64,000 bases of DNA, taken from Escherichia phage vB_EcoP_ShWW44. The stretch lies in sequence record PQ900156.1, one strand, 5' to 3'. The notes under the pieces are model-generated. The model was given only the letters and a program-made list of their open reading frames with translations. It had not been told where the DNA came from and did no database searches. Positions 57,507-64,000 of this stretch are shown piece after piece. Numbering within the stretch: the first letter of the stretch is position 1; each line of letters starts with the position of its first letter. Position numbers and translations under genes: made by a program.

Positions 57507-59777
57507 TTATAAGTTCATACCAAGAGCCGATGCTGGGTCTTGGCTAGGGTCATAAAACTGGGAACTAAGTGAATAAGTCGGGTCTTGCTGTGCAGCTAAG
57601 TCACGTTCCTGTAAAGAGTTCCCGTTAGTCAAAGCATTATATCCGACAGCAGCAGATATGTTGGGGGTAGTTTCACCTTCTTTAGTAGGTGTTGTCAACG
57701 CCTTAGTTATTTGAAGGTTCTGGTTTCCTTGAGATTGTGCTTTTTGTTTCTCCATATCACGAGCATGTTTAGTACCAGATTCCTGTTCCAGATAATCCAG
57801 GTCTTTGAGGTCACCGCTAGAAATAGCTTCTTTAGCCTTAGCATTATTGAGTGCAATCTTACTTTTCAACTCTTCATTCTCAAGCTGTGCTTTCTGAATT
57901 GCTAATTGCTTAAGCTGTTCTTCCATAGGGTCTGGTTGTGGTTTCCAGGTACGTAATTCATGAGCAAGGTCTGGCATACGTTTAAGTTCTGCAATCTTAG
58001 CTACAAGAGATAACGTAATAGTCTGGTCAACTGTATTACCTAACGTTTGAACCATGAAGCTCAAATCCTGAGATTTCTGGTTATCAATTTCAGCAGTATT
58101 AATATCAACCTCAATATCGAAGTTACCTTTAAGGTCTTCACGGTTAATTTCTACATACTGCTCATTAGTAATACGTACTACTTCCTTCTCAGATAAGAAC
58201 ACAGCATTCATTGCACAAATCTTAGTACCAATGTCTGCCATACCCTTAGCTAATCGGCGAAGGATTGCCATCTCACGTTTGGATGCTGCATCAAGTGCAC
58301 CGCGGATACCAGCAGCTACATCTCCATAAGCTGCACCAGTTACACCACCAGAAAATGCTTTAACACCAGTTAGTGCCTCTGCTTCCTGGTTCTGCATCTG
58401 AGTCATTACTATTGCCGACTGAGGTAACTCAGGGAACTTGTGTTCCATAATGGCCTGACTAGGATTCCCCTGCATTGGGTTGTATTCATAGTCTTGCCCA
58501 TCATCATATCGACGACGGTTTAGAGTATCTAACATCCCTTTAGGATAACCACGTTGCCCGTTTGCACTTCGACCCAACAGGTCAATCATCCCACGCATTG
58601 TTGCACCAAGAATTGCTTGGTTATCCCCTAGTAGTTCAGCGTCAGCTTCACCAAAGAGTTCACGTTTACGTGGCATGTAAGGGACAACTACCAGAGGTAA
58701 CTTACCATCTGGGAATGGGTTCTTCTCCATACGAATAAGAGTAGAACCAATCCAGGTAGCAACAATTGGTTCCAGTGAACCGTCATCATTAATGTCGTAA
58801 AATCCCCAGTACTCATAAGCAACTACTTTCTTACGTAATGCATCTTTAAACTGGAAATCACCAGGAGTTTTACTTTCATGGTCTGGGTCAGTCATAGGGC
58901 TAGAACTTTCCCAGTCAATTTTATCCAGATTGTGATAGCGGTCTTTGTTCTTCATGAGGTCTGCTTTGCAAGTCTCAAATGAGATAACTGCATAAAGAGC
59001 CTTATCCAAATCACCATTACAGCTTGGGTCAATAACTACGTTGTTGGGGTTAAGCATTTCAACAGTAGGTCTGTTAACCAGTGCTTTTTCTACTTCTACT
59101 TCAGTAACACCCGTCTGGATTGCATAGGTAGCTTCCCCAGTTTCATTGAAGTAGTTAACAGCTTCCTTAATATCTTCTGGCATCGTTTCGTCATATTCAC
59201 GAGGATTCTCTGCCTGAAGCTGTAAAGCCTGCTGAAGAATATCTGCTTGTTCCTGGTTCTCAATTGGATACAACTGGAAGACTGGGGTTTCTGTTTTAAT
59301 CTTAACAGTCTTACGTTCCCAACCAATACGAGCAATGCCAGTACCATCGTCTACGACACTGTGTACGTAATCATCCACCAGTTTTACTTTATTAAGCTGG
59401 GTACGGAATTGGTAGTTAAGCACTAGTTCATTCTGACGTGCAGCTAACTCATCCTCAAAAGTAACAGGGGTTACTTTAAAAAGTTTGTTAGACGAGAGGA
59501 ATGGTTCTGACAATGGTGCATAACGCCATTCTGCCTGACGGCGAACCAGTCTAGGCTGGACTTGGGAACGGCCCTTAACCTTTGGGGGTTTAGCCTTACC
59601 CTTAACTTCCATCAAGTCATTCCACTCACGAATCTGAGCCATGATTGCATCGTGAGCAGGTTTAGCTGATTCCAAATCACCTTTCAGTAATTGGATACTT
59701 GGTTCCTTCTTCCAGTCCGTTAACTTCTCTGATTGAGCCGGGTCTGGTAAAGGCTTAAAAGTGTCTTGGTGTTCCAT
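57507..59777 (-). CDS. portal protein (N4 gp59-like), 756 aa
   Basis: Size and position. Confidence 0.7.
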
Positions 59778-59779
59778 AG

Positions 59780-60286
59780 TTATTCCTGTTCAAAAAGTTT
59801 ACGGTCAGCCTGAATCTGTTTACCCAACTCAATTAGTTGGCTGTCACGGAGTCTAACAGTTGCCCGGAGTTCTTCAACCAAACGTCTGCCTTCTTCAAGA
59901 CTGTTGTCGAGTCTGGCTGCATGGCTTGCAAGACTTCTGCACTCAAGGGTTCCGGCTTCGGCTTGACGTTTATATACCGATGCTCGCCTTTCAGACTGTT
60001 GCATCCGGCTGTCGTAATCACTGCTAACGCGAGCAAGCTCGCTTGCGTAATTACTCTCAGCCGTCTGCAACCGGGAAGTGAGTAACCCGACTTCATAACT
60101 ATGGTTTCTTTGGAGAGCATTGTATTTGTCCTGTAATTTTTGTATTGCCTTTTGGTCTTCAACCTTTTGGTCATCCCATTTCTTTTGAACAGTAGACTGT
60201 CCATTGGAATTACCCCAAAAGTAAATGGTGGCCCCTAGGACCACCACCAGAAGATAAGGCCAACCTTTAGAGATTAGCATCTTCAT
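59780..60286 (-). CDS. i-spanin (Rz-like): N-terminal TM plus coiled-coil periplasmic domain, about 168 aa
   Basis: [20 protein letters not shown] then charged helical region; adjacent to endolysin; start at ATG with GGAGG SD. Confidence 0.5.
59833..60120 (-). CDS. o-spanin (Rz1-like lipoprotein) fully embedded in the i-spanin gene in another frame
   Basis: Signal-like [22 protein letters not shown] with Cys at a lipobox-like position; Pro-rich mature part KPKPEP; start ambiguous (60120 or 60096). Confidence 0.4.
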   Translation of the reverse strand: MLSKETIVMKSGYSLPGCRRLRVITQASLLALAVITTAGCNSLKGEHRYINVKPKPEPLSAEVLQAMQPDSTTVLKKADVWLKNSGQLLDSVTAN

Positions 60287-60902
60287 TACATGCCTCCAGT
60301 GGCACATTGCCTATTCGGTTAGCTACCCAACCATATGTAAAGTCTGGCATGTTTAATGAGGTGTAGTGGTTCAGTTGTTTGGCATCAAGTAACTTAATCA
60401 TTACCTTACATGCTGCAACTTTGCCTCGTTTTTTCTGTAATGCTTTATATGCATTAACAGTACTTGCACCGACTTTACCATCAACCTGTATTTTAGGGTA
60501 GTCTTTGCCATCACGGGACATTTCATTAAGAGATTGCTGTAACCACTTAGCCGGACGAGTTACACCAGTGTTAACACCAGCATCTACCAGCTTGTGTGTT
60601 ACAGCAGGAGATATATCAGCGAAGGCTACGAAGTTAGGCTTAAGTACATAGTCATCAATGTATATCTCAGCAGCCATCTCTTTAGATAAACCTTTCATAG
60701 AACCATCCCAACCATACTCAGTAGCCAGAACTTCTTTGTGAGATTTAGCTACAGATTGAGTAATGCCATGATTAGTTTCCCCACCTGGGTCACGAGGATT
60801 GTTTACATATCCCCCTTCCATATAGAACACTGCCCCCAGGATAGCAGCGACAACTCCTCCCACTGTACCACCTTTCGCAGCAAGTTTCTGTTTAGCTTTC
60901 AT
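60267..60902 (-). CDS. endolysin, GH108 N-acetylmuramidase with N-terminal SAR-like segment, 211 aa
   Basis: GH108 signature EGGYVNNPRDPGGETNHGIT; Gly/Ala-rich weakly hydrophobic N-terminus; AGGAAG SD. Confidence 0.75.
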   Translation of the reverse strand: MKAKQKLAAKGGTVGGVVAAILGAVFYMEGGYVNNPRDPGGETNHGITQSVAKSHKEVLATEYGWDGSMKGLSKEMAAEIYIDDYVLKPNFVAFADISPAVTHKLVDAGVNTGVTRPAKWLQQSLNEMSRDGKDYPKIQVDGKVGASTVNAYKALQKKRGKVAACKVMIKLLDAKQLNHYTSLNMPDFTYGWVANRIGNVPLEACNEDANL

Positions 60903-61152
60903 GTGAATCTTCCTTTGGTCGGAATCGTATCAATCTGCCTATGATGTTTAAGGCAAACAGTGCGATTGCAATATTGGAACCATGGGGAATATCTTCCAGG
61001 ATGTGACGAGGTAGTCCTGTCAGCATTGGTTGAATAATATCTATGGCAGAAAACATAATTAACCCAAATGTACTAATCTGAATGGATGCCCACTTCCAGC
61101 ATCTTTTCCAGTTAGGTACTAACTCAATCTTTCTTTTTAACCTGCGAACCAT
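60892..61152 (-). CDS. holin/pinholin candidate (two TM helices), about 86 aa
   Basis: Two hydrophobic helices; immediately upstream of endolysin; start moved to ATG with GGGAG SD. Confidence 0.4.
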   Translation of the reverse strand: MVRRLKRKIELVPNWKRCWKWASIQISTFGLIMFSAIDIIQPMLTGLPRHILEDIPHGSNIAIALFALNIIGRLIRFRPKEDSHES

Positions 61153-61466
61153 GCGAATATCTCCCGTCTTGCAGCAGCCAATACACCAATAATTGCACCT
61201 GCTCCAGCCCACACCCACTTACCAAAAATTCCAGCACCAACAACTTTATGCTTAATGGTGATGAACTCTTCAATAGTAGGTTCATTTTTAGCTAAGCTAT
61301 CCTCCACATTTTTCAGCCTATTGCCTATGTCATTGATTGAATCCCGTAGTTCCACCAGAGTTTCCTCCAGTTTCTCACGGTCCTGCCTGTCCCTTGTCTG
61401 GTTCTCAAACAGAGTCTTCAATCGTTCCTCCAGTCTGACTAGAAGCAGTTCACCCGATTCATTCAT
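61137..61466 (-). CDS. coiled-coil protein with C-terminal TM helix (holin/antiholin candidate), 109 aa
   Basis: Charged helical N-terminal part and C-terminal VVGAGIFGKWVWAGAGAIIGVLAA. Confidence 0.4.
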   Translation of the reverse strand: MNESGELLLVRLEERLKTLFENQTRDRQDREKLEETLVELRDSINDIGNRLKNVEDSLAKNEPTIEEFITIKHKVVGAGIFGKWVWAGAGAIIGVLAAARREIFAWFAG

Positions 61467-61643
61467 AATATTACCGTAGTTGTGTAGTTAGATTCCCCAA
61501 TAGGGCCATATCATAAGATGACTCTTAGATAATACTTAGTATGATGGGGTACATCCAGACATAGTGTCTGCCTTAGACATTATTGTAAGAAGTGCAGGTA
61601 CAGTGAGAGAATGGGGAATGCAAACAGTAAACTCTATATAGGA

Positions 61644-61669
61644 AAAGCCCCCTTAATTGGGGGCTTTTA
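61644..61669 (-). terminator. terminator hairpin (AAAGCCCCC-TTAATT-GGGGGCTTT) downstream of tailspike gene
   Basis: 9-bp stem with T-runs on both strands. Confidence 0.55.
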
Positions 61670-61682
61670 GTAATGTCACATG

Positions 61683-63590
61683 TTATACAAAGTAAACCAA
61701 TGTACCTATGATACGTGAATTATTCCCCAGTGCTGCAACAGAACCAGAAATACCCACTGCTGAGGCTGTAGATGCAGAGATCATGATATTGGAGTTCAGT
61801 GCTTCTGCTCGGATATACAAGCCATAAACAGGTAAGGCAAGTTCAGCATAGTAGCCTACACTACCTGTACCTGTGGTATCACCACACGCAAAAGGCAGAC
61901 CTAAAATTGCTGACTGATTCCCTGTACCAATAGTATTGATATGAATATCAAACTCTACTGTTACCTTACGACCTTCTTTACGGTACTTACCCTTCTGAAT
62001 GTTATAAGTAGCATTACCACCTACAGAAGGGGTCCATGTACCTTCTATAACATCAGAGGATGTCCATGCATTTGGTGATAATGGTGGGTTATTGACAACA
62101 GTGAATTTAGCACCAGCACCTGAGTTGTAGGGGATGAATACAGGATTAATACGAGCAAAGGTGTTATTAACCTGTTCATCAAGGTTGTTCATATCAATCA
62201 GAACCTGTCCATTAGCAAATGTACTAACAGCAATATCCTCTACTACCCAATCACGTAGCTTAACGTTACCATCCATCATTCCGATGATGCGACCATTATT
62301 CCCTATCTTCTCACTATGCATGTTGATGTAACAGTTACGGATTCGTACACTCTGTGGGAAAAGGTAGTTTGCAGGATTAGTCTTGTCACTAAGTACTGAA
62401 ACCATCCAAGGTCGTACAGCTGTACTCACCTCTGTGTAGTATCCATCAATAATAGCACCGTGAGCATTTGGCCCAAGAAGAATACCTCCAGTACAGTGGT
62501 GTGCGTTACCTCCAATTACACGGCACATTGTAGAGTTGATATATGCAAAGTAACCTAAGTCTTGGTTATCGTATGCACCCATTGAGCAATCACGTATGGT
62601 AAATCGTGAGTTACCGCCATCATAGGCACTACCATCAGTCTTCTTGCCAAGGAGAGCTATGAAACTACCAGTTGCTACTGTACTGAAGTAGGTATGTTTC
62701 TCACAACACTCAATGATCCCATCCCAGTTCTCATACTGAGAATAGATGTCATAGGTTGCAGAGTTACCATAGTCCATAAAGATGCAGTATCTGATTCTAG
62801 GTGTGAATACGAAGGACTTAATGAAAATACCGAAACCTGCTTGCACACCACCAGTGAATCGCAGACCCTCTATAGTGTATTCAGACTGATAGAAGTTATC
62901 AGCAGTAGGTGCATCTTCTGGAGTTGGGTCACCTAAGTACATTGCTGCACCAGTACCTGAGTAGTCCAGAGTAGCTGACTGAAAACCATATACTGCTACA
63001 GGGCGTGTAAAGTTTATACCAGTAGTATACTTATAATGACCAGCAGGAAAGATAACAGAAATGGGTGCAGAGTATTTGGCTCGGGAGTTTACCCAAGCAA
63101 CCATAGCCTGAATAGCAGCAGTGTCATCGGTAATCCCATCACCTACTGCACCAAAGTCCTTCAGACTTACCCAATCACCTAATGCAGCCTGTACAGTGCG
63201 AGCAACTTCACCAACACGTCCGGTAATGTGACCAACCTTACTAGAGCCAGTGTTAGAAGCCAGTTCGTCATATACTGCTGTAATGGCTTCATTGACTCGT
63301 ACAGCAATGTCATTTGGTGCAGGAAGTAGACTAACGGTAATACCCCCTGGGTTATAGGTTAATTGGTCACCATTTACATTAGCAATGGTTGCCCCGGAGG
63401 GGAGAGTAGGTAAAGTCCATATCTTCTTAGCATTACGATCGAAGAGTATAGTCTTATCATCTAGCAATGTATTAGTATTCGTACTGAGAATAACTTTACC
63501 TTCTGCTACGTTACATGCACGAGCAATGGCTTGTATATTGGTAAGAATACCCGTAGAGCCTTTACCACCTTGAGAGAACATCTCGTTCAT
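61683..63590 (-). CDS. tailspike/tail fibre with pectate-lyase-like right-handed beta-helix (putative polysaccharide depolymerase), 635 aa
   Basis: LKDFGAVGDGITDDTAAIQAMV signature typical of the pectate lyase superfamily; AGAGG SD. Confidence 0.7.
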   Translation of the reverse strand: MNEMFSQGGKGSTGILTNIQAIARACNVAEGKVILSTNTNTLLDDKTILFDRNAKKIWTLPTLPSGATIANVNGDQLTYNPGGITVSLLPAPNDIAVRVNEAITAVYDELASNTGSSKVGHITGRVGEVARTVQAALGDWVSLKDFGAVGDGITDDTAAIQAMVAWVNSRAKYSAPISVIFPAGHYKYTTGINFTRPVAVYGFQSATLDYSGTGAAMYLGDPTPEDAPTADNFYQSEYTIEGLRFTGGVQAGFGIFIKSFVFTPRIRYCIFMDYGNSATYDIYSQYENWDGIIECCEKHTYFSTVATGSFIALLGKKTDGSAYDGGNSRFTIRDCSMGAYDNQDLGYFAYINSTMCRVIGGNAHHCTGGILLGPNAHGAIIDGYYTEVSTAVRPWMVSVLSDKTNPANYLFPQSVRIRNCYINMHSEKIGNNGRIIGMMDGNVKLRDWVVEDIAVSTFANGQVLIDMNNLDEQVNNTFARINPVFIPYNSGAGAKFTVVNNPPLSPNAWTSSDVIEGTWTPSVGGNATYNIQKGKYRKEGRKVTVEFDIHINTIGTGNQSAILGLPFACGDTTGTGSVGYYAELALPVYGLYIRAEALNSNIMISASTASAVGISGSVAALGNNSRIIGTLVYFV

Positions 63591-63885: not shown

Positions 63886-64000
63886 TTACGCAGAAGATAC
63901 AGAAGGTTTCTTCATTGCACGACGTTGTACATCCTTAGCAATGGCGTAAGCCTGCTTAGGGTCACACTCTTCCTTGATGAGTTCTTCTGTGTTCCGGCGT
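63886..64000 (-). CDS. 3' end of an upstream late gene (partial; continues beyond the window)
   Basis: Open frame from the window edge to a TAA stop at 63886-63888 on the minus strand. Confidence 0.3.
   Translation of the reverse strand, partial: RRNTEELIKEECDPKQAYAIAKDVQRRAMKKPSVSSA

Follow-up and report, generated by a model that had tools for sequence, protein, structure and literature searches.

In the window, by which we mean the whole stretch of 64,000 nucleotides analyzed here from Escherichia phage vB_EcoP_ShWW44 (PQ900156.1), the minus strand of 60267–61466 codes for gp61 (211 aa), gp62 (86 aa), and gp63 (109 aa). An ORF check thus confirms the three lysis genes of the original prediction, on that strand and at the coordinates it gave. 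As the extent of the cassette, however, the predicted span was too short: the cassette reaches down to 59780 and takes in the genes of a putative i-spanin and an embedded o-spanin, which had been overlooked. The features of the locus are as follows.

59780–60286, minus strand: gp60, 168 aa, a putative Rz-like i-spanin whose TM segment is N-terminal and whose helical domain is periplasmic (PHROG 6197, identity to N4)
59833–60120, minus strand: gp60a (gp60.1), a putative o-spanin in the +1 frame inside gp60, giving a 56-aa mature lipoprotein (lipobox TTAG/C, Cys codon 60001–60003)
60267–60902, minus strand: gp61, a 211-aa putative GH108 N-acetylmuramidase with PG_binding_3 and an N-terminal SAR-type signal anchor (Pfam, identity to N4, PDB relatives, AF2 and Foldseek)
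60819–60872, minus strand: SAR-type segment of gp61, G11–M28 (GGTVGGVVAAILGAVFYM), uncharged and Gly/Ala-rich, ending at the Glu29 codon (60816–60818)
60892–61152, minus strand: gp62, an 86-aa two-TM protein (predicted N-in/C-in), ortholog of the N4 lysis regulator gp62 (DUF7940, PHROG 1356, identity to N4)
61137–61466, minus strand: gp63, 109 aa, tail-anchored in the membrane and orthologous to gp63 of N4, a class III pinholin (identity to N4, PHROG 5211); its predicted parts are a cytoplasmic coiled coil (about residues 5–60), a juxtamembrane "Receiver" block (P63–K83), and a TM segment (W84–A99)
61170–61217, minus strand: the gp63 TM segment W84–A99 (WVWAGAGAIIGVLAAA), Gly/Ala-rich (hydropathy)
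61245–61286, minus strand: gp63 residues 61–74, equivalent to the part of the N4 "Receiver" where rapid-lysis mutations map (alignments and the N4 mutant table)
61419–61431, minus strand: candidate internal start of gp63, TTG at codon 16 (61421–61419), with GGAGG at 61431–61427 and a 5-nt spacer, matching the alternative start Met17 of N4 gp63
61643–61668, minus strand: terminator-like hairpin with a 10-bp stem followed by TTTT; placed 15 nt past the stop of the tailspike gene and 176 nt upstream of gp63, it bounds the cassette on the upstream side

The window belongs to Gamaleyavirus, that is, to the G7C-like, N4-like Schitoviridae. We consider it highly probable that the minus strand of 59780–61466 comprises the whole multigene lysis cassette of an N4-like podophage of the G7C-like group (Gamaleyavirus), and that each of its genes is the ortholog of its counterpart in gp63-gp62-gp61-gp60/gp60a of N4, with roles that derive from 57–70% identity to the N4 proteins and from one preprint. 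Such a cassette is already known: near-identical phages carry it in annotated form, and experiments in N4 have dissected its mechanism. Judged by their strong homologues (E values of 1e-44 to 1e-105 against N4), gp63, gp62, and gp61 are real genes. The arrangement of the holin genes had been called unusual, which holds only relative to lambda or phage 21; in N4-like phages it is standard and conserved, with homologues of gp63 in 146 phage records and of gp62 in 108. Like its counterpart in N4, the cassette lies between the portal and tail genes, and gene order, strand, and overlapping junctions are also alike in the two phages. N4 itself belongs to a different genus, Enquatrovirus.

Neighboring genes overlap at their stop/start junctions by 16 nt (gp63/gp62), 11 nt (gp62/gp61), and 20 nt (gp61/gp60), which suggests translational coupling. 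The hairpin that bounds the cassette upstream has a predicted RNA folding energy of −17.5 kcal/mol (z = −3.7); in G7C, too, gp63 is preceded by analogous hairpins, and in N4 by a T-run. A promoter scan of the coding strand upstream of gp63 found no convincing sigma-70 promoter.

Among the near-identical annotated phages is St11Ph5 (NC_070873 / MG208881), with 96.7% nucleotide identity over the cassette, the same gene order and coordinates, and the genes annotated as gp60.1 to gp63. Each protein differs by 1–4 amino acids, including A13T in the SAR segment of gp61, and from 61549 onward, in the tailspike region, the two sequences are 100% identical. Identical coordinates without indels raised the suspicion that the window is an artificially mutated St11Ph5. 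This was rejected, as the differences are mainly third-position transitions, their pattern is mosaic, and one block of 2.45 kb is identical; the divergence is natural. Other Gamaleyavirus records to which the cassette was likened are ECBP1, Bp4, PD205, and G7C.

gp61 matches Pfam Glyco_hydro_108 (PF05838) with 72.0 bits (cutoff 21.2, E = 6e-20), and its residues 117–196 match PG_binding_3 (PF09374) with 33.5 bits (cutoff 24.6). The predicted GH108 assignment and DPGG motif are thereby borne out; the motif is D38-P39-G40-G41, and the EGGY motif, whose catalytic significance is known from the literature, is E29-G30-G31-Y32. Among 121 homologues spanning 50–96% identity, E29, G31, D38, and G40 are invariant. 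The protein is 70% identical to N4 gp61 (E = 3e-105), and its relatives in the PDB include Sen1395 (6v3z) and TtsA (6v40). Its AF2 model (pLDDT 94.5) has a helix at residues 12–29, and the top Foldseek matches in the PDB (TtsA, Sen1395, SagA, and NMB1012; probability 1.00, TM-score 0.6–0.8) point to a GH108 fold. Against NCBIfam NF040573 (holin-associated N-acetylmuramidase, TtsA-type equivalog) it scores 59.5 bits, far below the cutoff of 240; it is related to this family and not a member of it. Muramidase activity itself is, in the account given by PMC12642591, demonstrated only for N4 gp61 (Stojkovic & Rothman-Denes 2007, as cited there), and gp61 of the window is a putative muramidase by homology.

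The original prediction also held that the Gly/Ala-rich N-terminus of gp61 is of the SAR type, and this is supported by its composition, by the 121 homologues, and by N4 gp61. Residues G11–M28 carry no charge, 8 of the 18 are Gly or Ala (9 with Thr13), four lysines (K2, K4, K6, and K10) precede the segment, the net charge downstream is −1, and the segment directly abuts the catalytic-motif Glu29. Throughout the homologues, the stretch without charge that leads up to the invariant Glu measures 18 aa in the median and consists of 53% G/A/S/T, with a median of 2 K/R upstream. The conserved Gly pair is shared with N4: G12 and G13 of N4 gp61, both of which are rapid-lysis sites, correspond to G15 and G16 of the window. 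Relative to that of N4, the N-terminus has 3 additional residues, and it is the more basic and the less hydrophobic of the two (KD of the best 19-aa stretch, 1.65 vs 2.17). With a mean KD of 1.86 over 17 aa, it is as hydrophobic as the TM segments of gp62 and the spanin. On neither the Kyte-Doolittle nor a Hessa scale does a SAR segment that can be released stand apart here from TM anchors that are stable, all hydrophobic segments of the cassette scoring alike; because of this, the description "weakly hydrophobic, releasable" derives from composition and homology. In soluble GH108 structures, helix 1 aligns with gp61 residues 18–28; for example, the TtsA helix EIFAAILSREGGY aligns with VAAILGAVFYMEGGY of gp61. 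Since the C-terminal half of the segment is the first GH108 helix in soluble relatives, the tethered enzyme should be inactive. By homology to N4 gp61, we infer that gp61 is a SAR endolysin.

gp62 is the two-TM protein that had been predicted upstream of the endolysin, with hydrophobic segments at about residues 21–45 and 59–76. It matches Pfam DUF7940 (50.9 bits, cutoff 27) and PHROG 1356 "holin" (E = 2.5e-31), and is 65% identical to N4 gp62 (E = 2e-44). The first 20 aa contain eight K/R, the loop is acidic, and the C-tail is basic, which predicts that both termini are cytoplasmic. The longest ORF extends 22 codons further upstream, to a GTG at 61218, and would give 108 aa, which may be compared with the "109-aa" N4 gp62 of PMC12642591. 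The frame of this extension is open in 5 of 6 lineages, and this is uninformative, because the stretch overlaps the gp63 TM codons, where stops would need K/N/R/D/E codons. The 108-aa form is disfavored: the GTG arises incidentally from the conserved K-W-V-W codons and has a poor SD. We adopted the 86-aa form because its ATG has a good and conserved SD (GGGAG at 61165–61161, 8 nt upstream, found in four lineages). In databases, it is this two-TM protein, dispensable in N4, that bears the label "holin".

gp63 is 69% identical to N4 gp63 over its full length (E = 1e-54) and matches PHROG 5211 (E = 3e-50). A coiled-coil protein with a C-terminal TM helix had been expected at this position, and the sequence predicts both parts. 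Of the 17 L/I/V/M/F residues between positions 5 and 62, 12 lie on one unbroken a/d heptad register (P ~2e-4 after correction), and W84–A99 is uncharged, as is the equivalent segment in 91 of 102 family members. An N-in/C-out topology is predicted, because K+R before the TM segment exceed those after it in 96 of the 102. The family, with 120 cluster representatives, is one of small proteins of constant size with a conserved juxtamembrane block, and at least 80% of the 102 members retain P63, E67, K72, G77-A78-G79, G82, and W86. From P63 to F107 the protein is nearly invariant relative to N4. Residues S62, T65, I70, T71, and I72 of N4 gp63 correspond to N61, T64, I69, T70, and I71 of the window, four of them identical and N61 standing for the rapid-lysis site S62. 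The confidence of the AF2 model is low (pLDDT 51), which makes it usable for secondary structure at most. Identical proteins (100%) occur in ECBP1, PE007, and PD205. Mislabeling of gp63 is widespread, with database entries named "tail length tape-measure protein", "tail needle protein", or "hypothetical".

Family membership and 65–70% identity to N4 proteins of experimentally shown function thus uphold the earlier view of gp62 and gp63 as pinholin/antiholin candidates, in the sense of holin/antiholin-type lysis proteins. Which of the two is the pinholin had been left open; in N4 it is the single-TM coiled-coil gp63. Judged by hydropathy, charge distribution, and conservation, the gp61 N-terminus is probably neither soluble nor cleaved, and both ORFs upstream of it have predicted TM helices, the points on which the original prediction had been said to depend. 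Pinhole formation by gp63 of the window is inferred from its homology to N4 gp63, which complements S21 only, is holin-like with CCCP, and makes small lethal holes that release SAR but not soluble endolysins (PMC12642591).

The roles of the two small proteins could also be reversed, gp62 being a class II pinholin like S68 of phage 21 and gp63 an antiholin or regulator. A two-TM protein with N-in/C-in topology is typical of class II holins, PHROG 1356 and many GenBank records name gp62 a holin, and N4 gp62 is toxic, irreversibly lethal after CCCP, and slowly frees the lambda endolysin (PMC12642591). The N4 genetics nevertheless speak for gp63: six rapid-lysis alleles lie in N4 gp63, clustered at residues 62–72, whereas none map to gp62, which does not complement S21 within two hours and can be deleted with viable phage and earlier lysis (PMC12642591). 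Among the eight Schitoviridae cassettes examined, gp63 adjoins the endolysin gene in all, whereas gp62 is missing in two (Delftia RG-2014 and Pseudomonas Meara). BLASTP of gp62 and gp63 against an S21 sequence gave no alignment. We regard the reversal of roles as improbable.

Two further readings concern the gp61 N-terminus. That it is a cleavable Sec signal peptide, and gp61 a soluble secreted endolysin controlled otherwise, as is Lys44 of Oenococcus phage fOg44, is very unlikely, even though a basic n-region and a hydrophobic h-region are present. About half of the homologues, including N4, have V-F-A/V-E before the catalytic Glu, which formally fits the −3/−1 rule, but in gp61 of the window F-Y-M stands before Glu29, and none of the last four residues (V-F-Y-M) is small. 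The residue before Glu is V, M, L, or I in 102 of 121 members; therefore, there is no conserved, family-wide peptidase site. L22-G23-A24/V25 is a possible site, but cleavage at A24 would remove the sequence that aligns with the structural helix of soluble GH108 proteins. In addition, a polar c-region is missing, and the catalytic motif follows the segment immediately. N4 gp61 associates with the membrane, acts together with a pinholin, and acquires rapid lysis from charge in the segment (G12E, G13E; PMC12642591). It is more unlikely still that the segment is a permanent signal anchor, with an enzyme that is active while tethered and with gp63/gp62 only permeabilizing the membrane. The hydropathy of the segment, equal to that of the other TM segments, would fit such an anchor, but its 50% content of G/A/T and its conserved Gly pairs do not, and N4 gp61 leaks like R21, lyses cells on overexpression, and is released by pinholins (PMC12642591). 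Since the catalytic Glu abuts the segment, a tethered gp61 would also be without helix 1 of its fold.

The remaining genes of the cassette, gp60 and gp60a, probably form a two-component embedded spanin pair of the Rz/Rz1 type, as their sequences suggest. gp60 matches PHROG 6197 "Rz-like spanin" (E = 7.6e-78), is 57% identical to N4 gp60, has a TM segment at about residues 8–25, and is preceded by the SD GGAGG 6 nt upstream of its start. The embedded +1 frame with a lipobox occurs in 6 of 7 Schitoviridae i-spanin genes scanned (the window, N4, KP8, Paxi, RG-2014, and Meara); in the seventh, Ea9-2, the scan found no match. The mature o-spanin is 54–59 aa long among the six and 56 aa in four of them, including N4, and its C-terminal 17 residues are conserved in 6 of the 7 cassettes. 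In St11Ph5 the o-spanin is already annotated. N4 gp60/gp60a are spanins that complement those of lambda (PMC12642591).

A finer reading of gp63 concerns its start. The 109-aa form begins at the ATG at 61466, whose ribosome-binding site is poor, and many gene callers report a form of 94 aa. It could be that, in this subclade, gp63 is made both as the 109-aa form and as a 94-aa form from the TTG at 61421 with its perfect GGAGG, the two acting as a holin/antiholin pair that sets lysis timing, but we consider this rather doubtful. The internal start, TTG in the window and ATG in N4, is not conserved across the genus or family, the position being CTG or CTT in G7C, KP8, Axy04, Ea9-2, and Paxi; in G7C it is CTG without an SD. 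If true, this would be a dual-start motif on a single-TM tail-anchored pinholin, and the two forms might bear on why lysis inhibition is seen in N4 and not in G7C.

The logic of the proposed system is that of phage 21 (S21-68, R21, and Rz-Rz1), P1 Lyz, and Mu gp22, in which a small-hole holin and a tethered endolysin freed by depolarization are followed by spanins; N4 gp61 and gp63 even cross-complement phage 21 components (PMC12642591). The parts differ, however. Neither gp62 nor gp63 matches S21 by BLASTP, endolysins of the phage 21 type are GH24 T4-lysozyme-like whereas gp61 is GH108, and the phage 21 pinholin has two TM segments whereas gp63 has a single one, at its C-terminus, along with a large coiled coil predicted to be cytoplasmic. 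By topology, its single TM segment likens gp63 to the class III holin T of T4; in T, the lysis-inhibition signal is received by a large domain in the periplasm, whereas gp63 would have about 10 aa in the periplasm and a cytoplasmic domain of 74–83 aa. The TtsA / Sen1395 / ChiP-type muramidases of type 10 secretion systems (6v40, 6v3z) share the GH108 + PG_binding_3 fold and EGGY with gp61, but in the alignment bacterial GH108 enzymes have an amphipathic charged helix where gp61 has its uncharged SAR segment.

Reading gp61 as a SAR endolysin and gp63 as the pinholin, lysis may proceed as follows. gp61 would be exported by Sec and held by residues 11–28 at the periplasmic face of the inner membrane, N-in/C-out, and it would be inactive there, with Glu29 at the end of the segment and the C-terminal half of the segment being the first GH108 helix. 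Meanwhile gp63 would build up in the inner membrane and, at the programmed time, form small holes through which the membrane potential is lost, as has been shown for N4 gp63. Depolarization would then free the gp61 anchor, and the enzyme would refold and degrade the peptidoglycan around the whole cell, as shown for N4, where gp61 has been established experimentally as a SAR endolysin and gp63 as a pinholin (Awuah et al., bioRxiv 2025, PMC12642591). gp62 may tune the timing and be dispensable, as in N4, where it regulates lysis without being essential and combines holin-like with antiholin-like properties (PMC12642591); its absence from two related cassettes supports dispensability here. After the loss of the wall, disruption of the outer membrane would fall to the spanin complex of gp60 and gp60a.

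As a discovery the cassette is of little import; its value lies in annotation, namely that in this lineage the real pinholin is probably the single-TM coiled-coil gp63. Regulatory details may differ from N4, because G7C, the type phage of the genus, is reported not to have the lysis inhibition seen in N4. The cassette is a natural comparison for N4 lysis inhibition, as its components are those of N4 and the Receiver/TM block of gp63 is nearly invariant; that this is so in a genus whose type phage reportedly lacks inhibition suggests that the determinant of inhibition lies elsewhere, or in the few variable positions.

The lysis genes of this phage, named after their counterparts in phage N4, are five tightly packed, partly overlapping minus-strand ORFs that lie between the portal and tailspike genes.

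Lysis cassette and flanking features
57507-59777, portal gene, flanking the cassette
59780-60286, minus strand, gp60, i-spanin, 168 aa
59833-60120, minus strand, gp60a, lipoprotein o-spanin, 95 aa, inside gp60 in the +1 frame
60267-60902, minus strand, gp61, endolysin, 211 aa
60892-61152, minus strand, gp62, two-TM protein, 86 aa from its ATG; the longest ORF reaches a GTG at 61218
61137-61466, minus strand, gp63, coiled-coil protein with a C-terminal TM segment, 109 aa
61643-61668, minus strand, strong terminator-like hairpin followed by TTTT (-17.5 kcal/mol, z = -3.7), separating the tailspike gene from the cassette
61683-63590, tailspike gene (gp63.1), flanking the cassette

Stop and start codons within the cassette overlap by 16, 11 and 20 nt, and a good Shine-Dalgarno sequence for each downstream gene sits within the preceding one (GGGAG, AAGGAAG and GGAGG). 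The hairpin is symmetric (A-tract/T-tract); G7C, the type phage of the genus Gamaleyavirus, carries a pair of hairpins at the corresponding position. A scan for sigma-70 promoters gave nothing convincing over the 176 nt from the hairpin to gp63.

The cassette region is 96.7% identical to that of phage St11Ph5 (Schitoviridae, Enquatrovirinae, Gamaleyavirus), with identical coordinates; there, gp60.2 and gp60.1 are annotated as spanins, gp61 as N-acetylmuramidase, gp62 as holin and gp63 as hypothetical. The differences between the two phages form a mosaic, mainly of third-codon-position transitions, and the divergence is natural. From 61549 to the window end at 64000 (2,452 nt, gp63.1 and its flanks) identity is 100%, and the adjoining lysis and portal genes are 3-5% different; this abrupt change in the mosaic, immediately upstream of gp63, suggests a recent swap of the receptor-binding module.

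The original prediction, whose span of 60267-61466 covers exactly gp61 to gp63, described a GH108 endolysin with a DPGG motif and a Gly/Ala-rich signal-arrest-release (SAR) type N-terminus, and both parts hold. The gp61 protein matches Pfam Glyco_hydro_108 (72 bits, cutoff 21.2) and PG_binding_3 (33.5 bits, cutoff 24.6), and its solved-structure relatives are Sen1395 (6v3z, E=2e-27), TtsA (6v40) and NMB1012, which are also the best PDB fold matches of its AlphaFold2 model (pLDDT 94.5, from 121 homologues). At 59.5 bits it falls below the TtsA-type NCBIfam equivalog cutoff of 240 and is not a member. The EGGY (E29-Y32) and DPGG (38-41) motifs are present with invariant key residues, EGGY being the catalytic motif of the GH108 family according to the literature. 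The N-terminus reads MKAKQKLAAK, then GGTVGGVVAAILGAVFYM, then E29, so that four lysines are followed by 18 uncharged residues (9 Gly/Ala/Thr) adjoining the catalytic Glu without a gap. The 121 homologues (50-96% identity) share this pattern: ahead of the invariant Glu they have an uncharged stretch with medians of 18 residues and 53% G/A/S/T, and before that stretch a median of 2 K/R with hardly any acidic residues. In the alignment with soluble GH108 structures, their first helix falls on the C-terminal half of the segment (TtsA EIFAAILSREGGY vs window VAAILGAVFYMEGGY), and residues 12-29 are modelled as a helix. On this basis, embedding the segment in the membrane would withhold a fold element and leave the catalytic Glu at the surface of the membrane, which could plausibly keep the enzyme inactive until release.

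The coiled-coil protein with a C-terminal TM segment and the two-TM protein were also recognized correctly. The heptad register of gp63 runs unbroken through residues 9-58 and places 12 of 17 hydrophobic residues at a/d (P about 2e-4); beyond it lies the uncharged segment W84-A99, rich in Gly and Ala. Phages ECBP1, PE007 and PD205 encode an identical protein (100%). Its family is small and uniform (120 cluster representatives from 1.84 billion proteins searched, nearly all 100-125 aa); a/d positions remain hydrophobic throughout, and conservation is highest in the juxtamembrane block and TM start (P63, E67, K72, G77-A78-G79, G82, W86). In 96 of 102 members, K+R are more numerous in the 14 residues that precede the TM segment than in the ~11-residue tail after it, which supports the predicted N-in/C-out orientation, also assumed by the authors of the N4 study. 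The AF2 structure model of gp63 is unreliable. The ribosome-binding site of the annotated start (ATG at 61466) is weak; within the gene, a TTG at codon 16 (61419-61431, minus strand) has a perfect GGAGG 5 nt upstream, and many automated gene calls pick a 94-aa gp63. The corresponding alternative start in N4 is Met17, whereas it is TTG here; among the related phages compared, it is absent in G7C and more distant relatives.

Homologues of gp63, the pinholin type defined by experiment, are widely mis-annotated in GenBank/UniRef as 'tail length tape-measure protein (T)', 'tail needle protein' or 'DUF342 family', and two Klebsiella phage records carry 'RIIB lysis inhibitor' or 'virion RNA polymerase' on the feature beneath the match. 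Phage records of T4-like size contain fragments 68-88% identical to gp63 (SKML-39 NC_019910, at positions 1-186, the record's very start, where nothing is annotated; vB_Ec-G1 PQ433349, 151 kb; AV101 OQ973471); these are probably assembly chimeras or N4-like phage contamination. A 2.76-Mb contig recorded as Enterococcus faecium carries proteins 97-98% identical to gp63; that species is not a plausible host for an N4-like phage of E. coli, so the proteins are likely assembly contamination.

From its two hydrophobic segments, acidic loop, basic tail and strongly basic N-terminus, gp62 is predicted to have an N-in/C-in topology. A 22-codon in-frame stretch (61153-61218, minus strand) precedes its ATG, beginning with GTG right after a TAA formed by gp63 Gly-Lys codons. 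The frame is also open in N4, KP8, Axy04 and Ea9-2 because it overlaps the gp63 TM codons; the long form from GTG 61218 has no independent support, and the 86-aa form is preferred.

The N4 cassette was dissected by the Ramsey laboratory in a preprint (PMC12642591). There, gp61 is a SAR endolysin that complements with a large-hole holin or a pinholin, is leaky like R21 (the phage 21 SAR endolysin), and has rapid-lysis alleles, G12E and G13E, within the SAR segment. N4 gp63 is a pinholin, which complemented S21, the phage 21 pinholin, but not lambda S and showed a holin-like CCCP response; six rapid-lysis alleles, from S62 to I72, fall in the authors' 'Receiver' domain, and its deletion needs compensating mutations in the SAR segment. 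N4 gp62 is a non-essential 'lysis regulator' of mixed holin-like/antiholin-like behaviour, and gp60/gp60a are functional spanins (PMC12642591). A single preprint, on a system 57-70% identical to the window's (gp60, gp61, gp62 and gp63), supplies this functional evidence. The mature o-spanin has 56 aa, as in N4, and a nearly identical C-terminus. G15 and G16 are the counterparts of N4 gp61 G12 and G13; N4 gp63 T65, I70, T71 and I72 are identical here (T64, I69, T70, I71), whereas N61 stands in place of S62. Compared with that of N4, the SAR segment is longer and more basic, with lower hydrophobicity, and it carries A13T relative to St11Ph5. G7C reportedly lacks N4-type lysis inhibition.

N4 genetics and conservation patterns disfavour three other assignments. 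That gp62 is the pinholin is improbable: it matches Pfam DUF7940 and PHROG 1356 'holin', and the 'holin' label in public records sits on this two-TM, dispensable protein; yet in all eight Schitoviridae cassettes compared (six host genera), gp63 lies directly upstream of the cassette and a GH108 endolysin is present, whereas gp62 is absent, without room for it, in Delftia phage RG-2014 and Pseudomonas phage Meara, where the gp63 homologue directly abuts the endolysin. This synteny fits a core-holin role for gp63 and an accessory one for gp62. A cleavable signal peptide on gp61 is very improbable, since the residue before the catalytic Glu is V/M/L/I in 102/121 homologues and the second before it is Ala in only about half (Tyr here), leaving no conserved signal-peptidase site at the segment end among them. 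A permanent anchor is rated lower still. Simple hydropathy scales could not tell SAR and stable TM segments apart.

The arrangement had been called unusual; it is instead the lineage norm, because gp63 and gp62 homologues occur in 146 and 108 phage records, respectively, and the cassette is already known. It resembles the phage 21 S21/R21/RzRz1 system (pinholin, SAR endolysin and spanins) in function, with no sequence similarity between them. Its endolysin has a GH108 fold, in contrast to the T4-lysozyme-like GH24 of phage 21, and its pinholin, unlike that of phage 21, has one C-terminal TM segment and a cytoplasmic coiled coil. The genes are orthologous to those of N4, and the cassette is a member of the N4 family by every testable criterion. 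By analogy with N4, gp61 would be exported, tethered, triggered and released, and lysis would very probably be driven by a pinholin/SAR-endolysin/spanin pathway.
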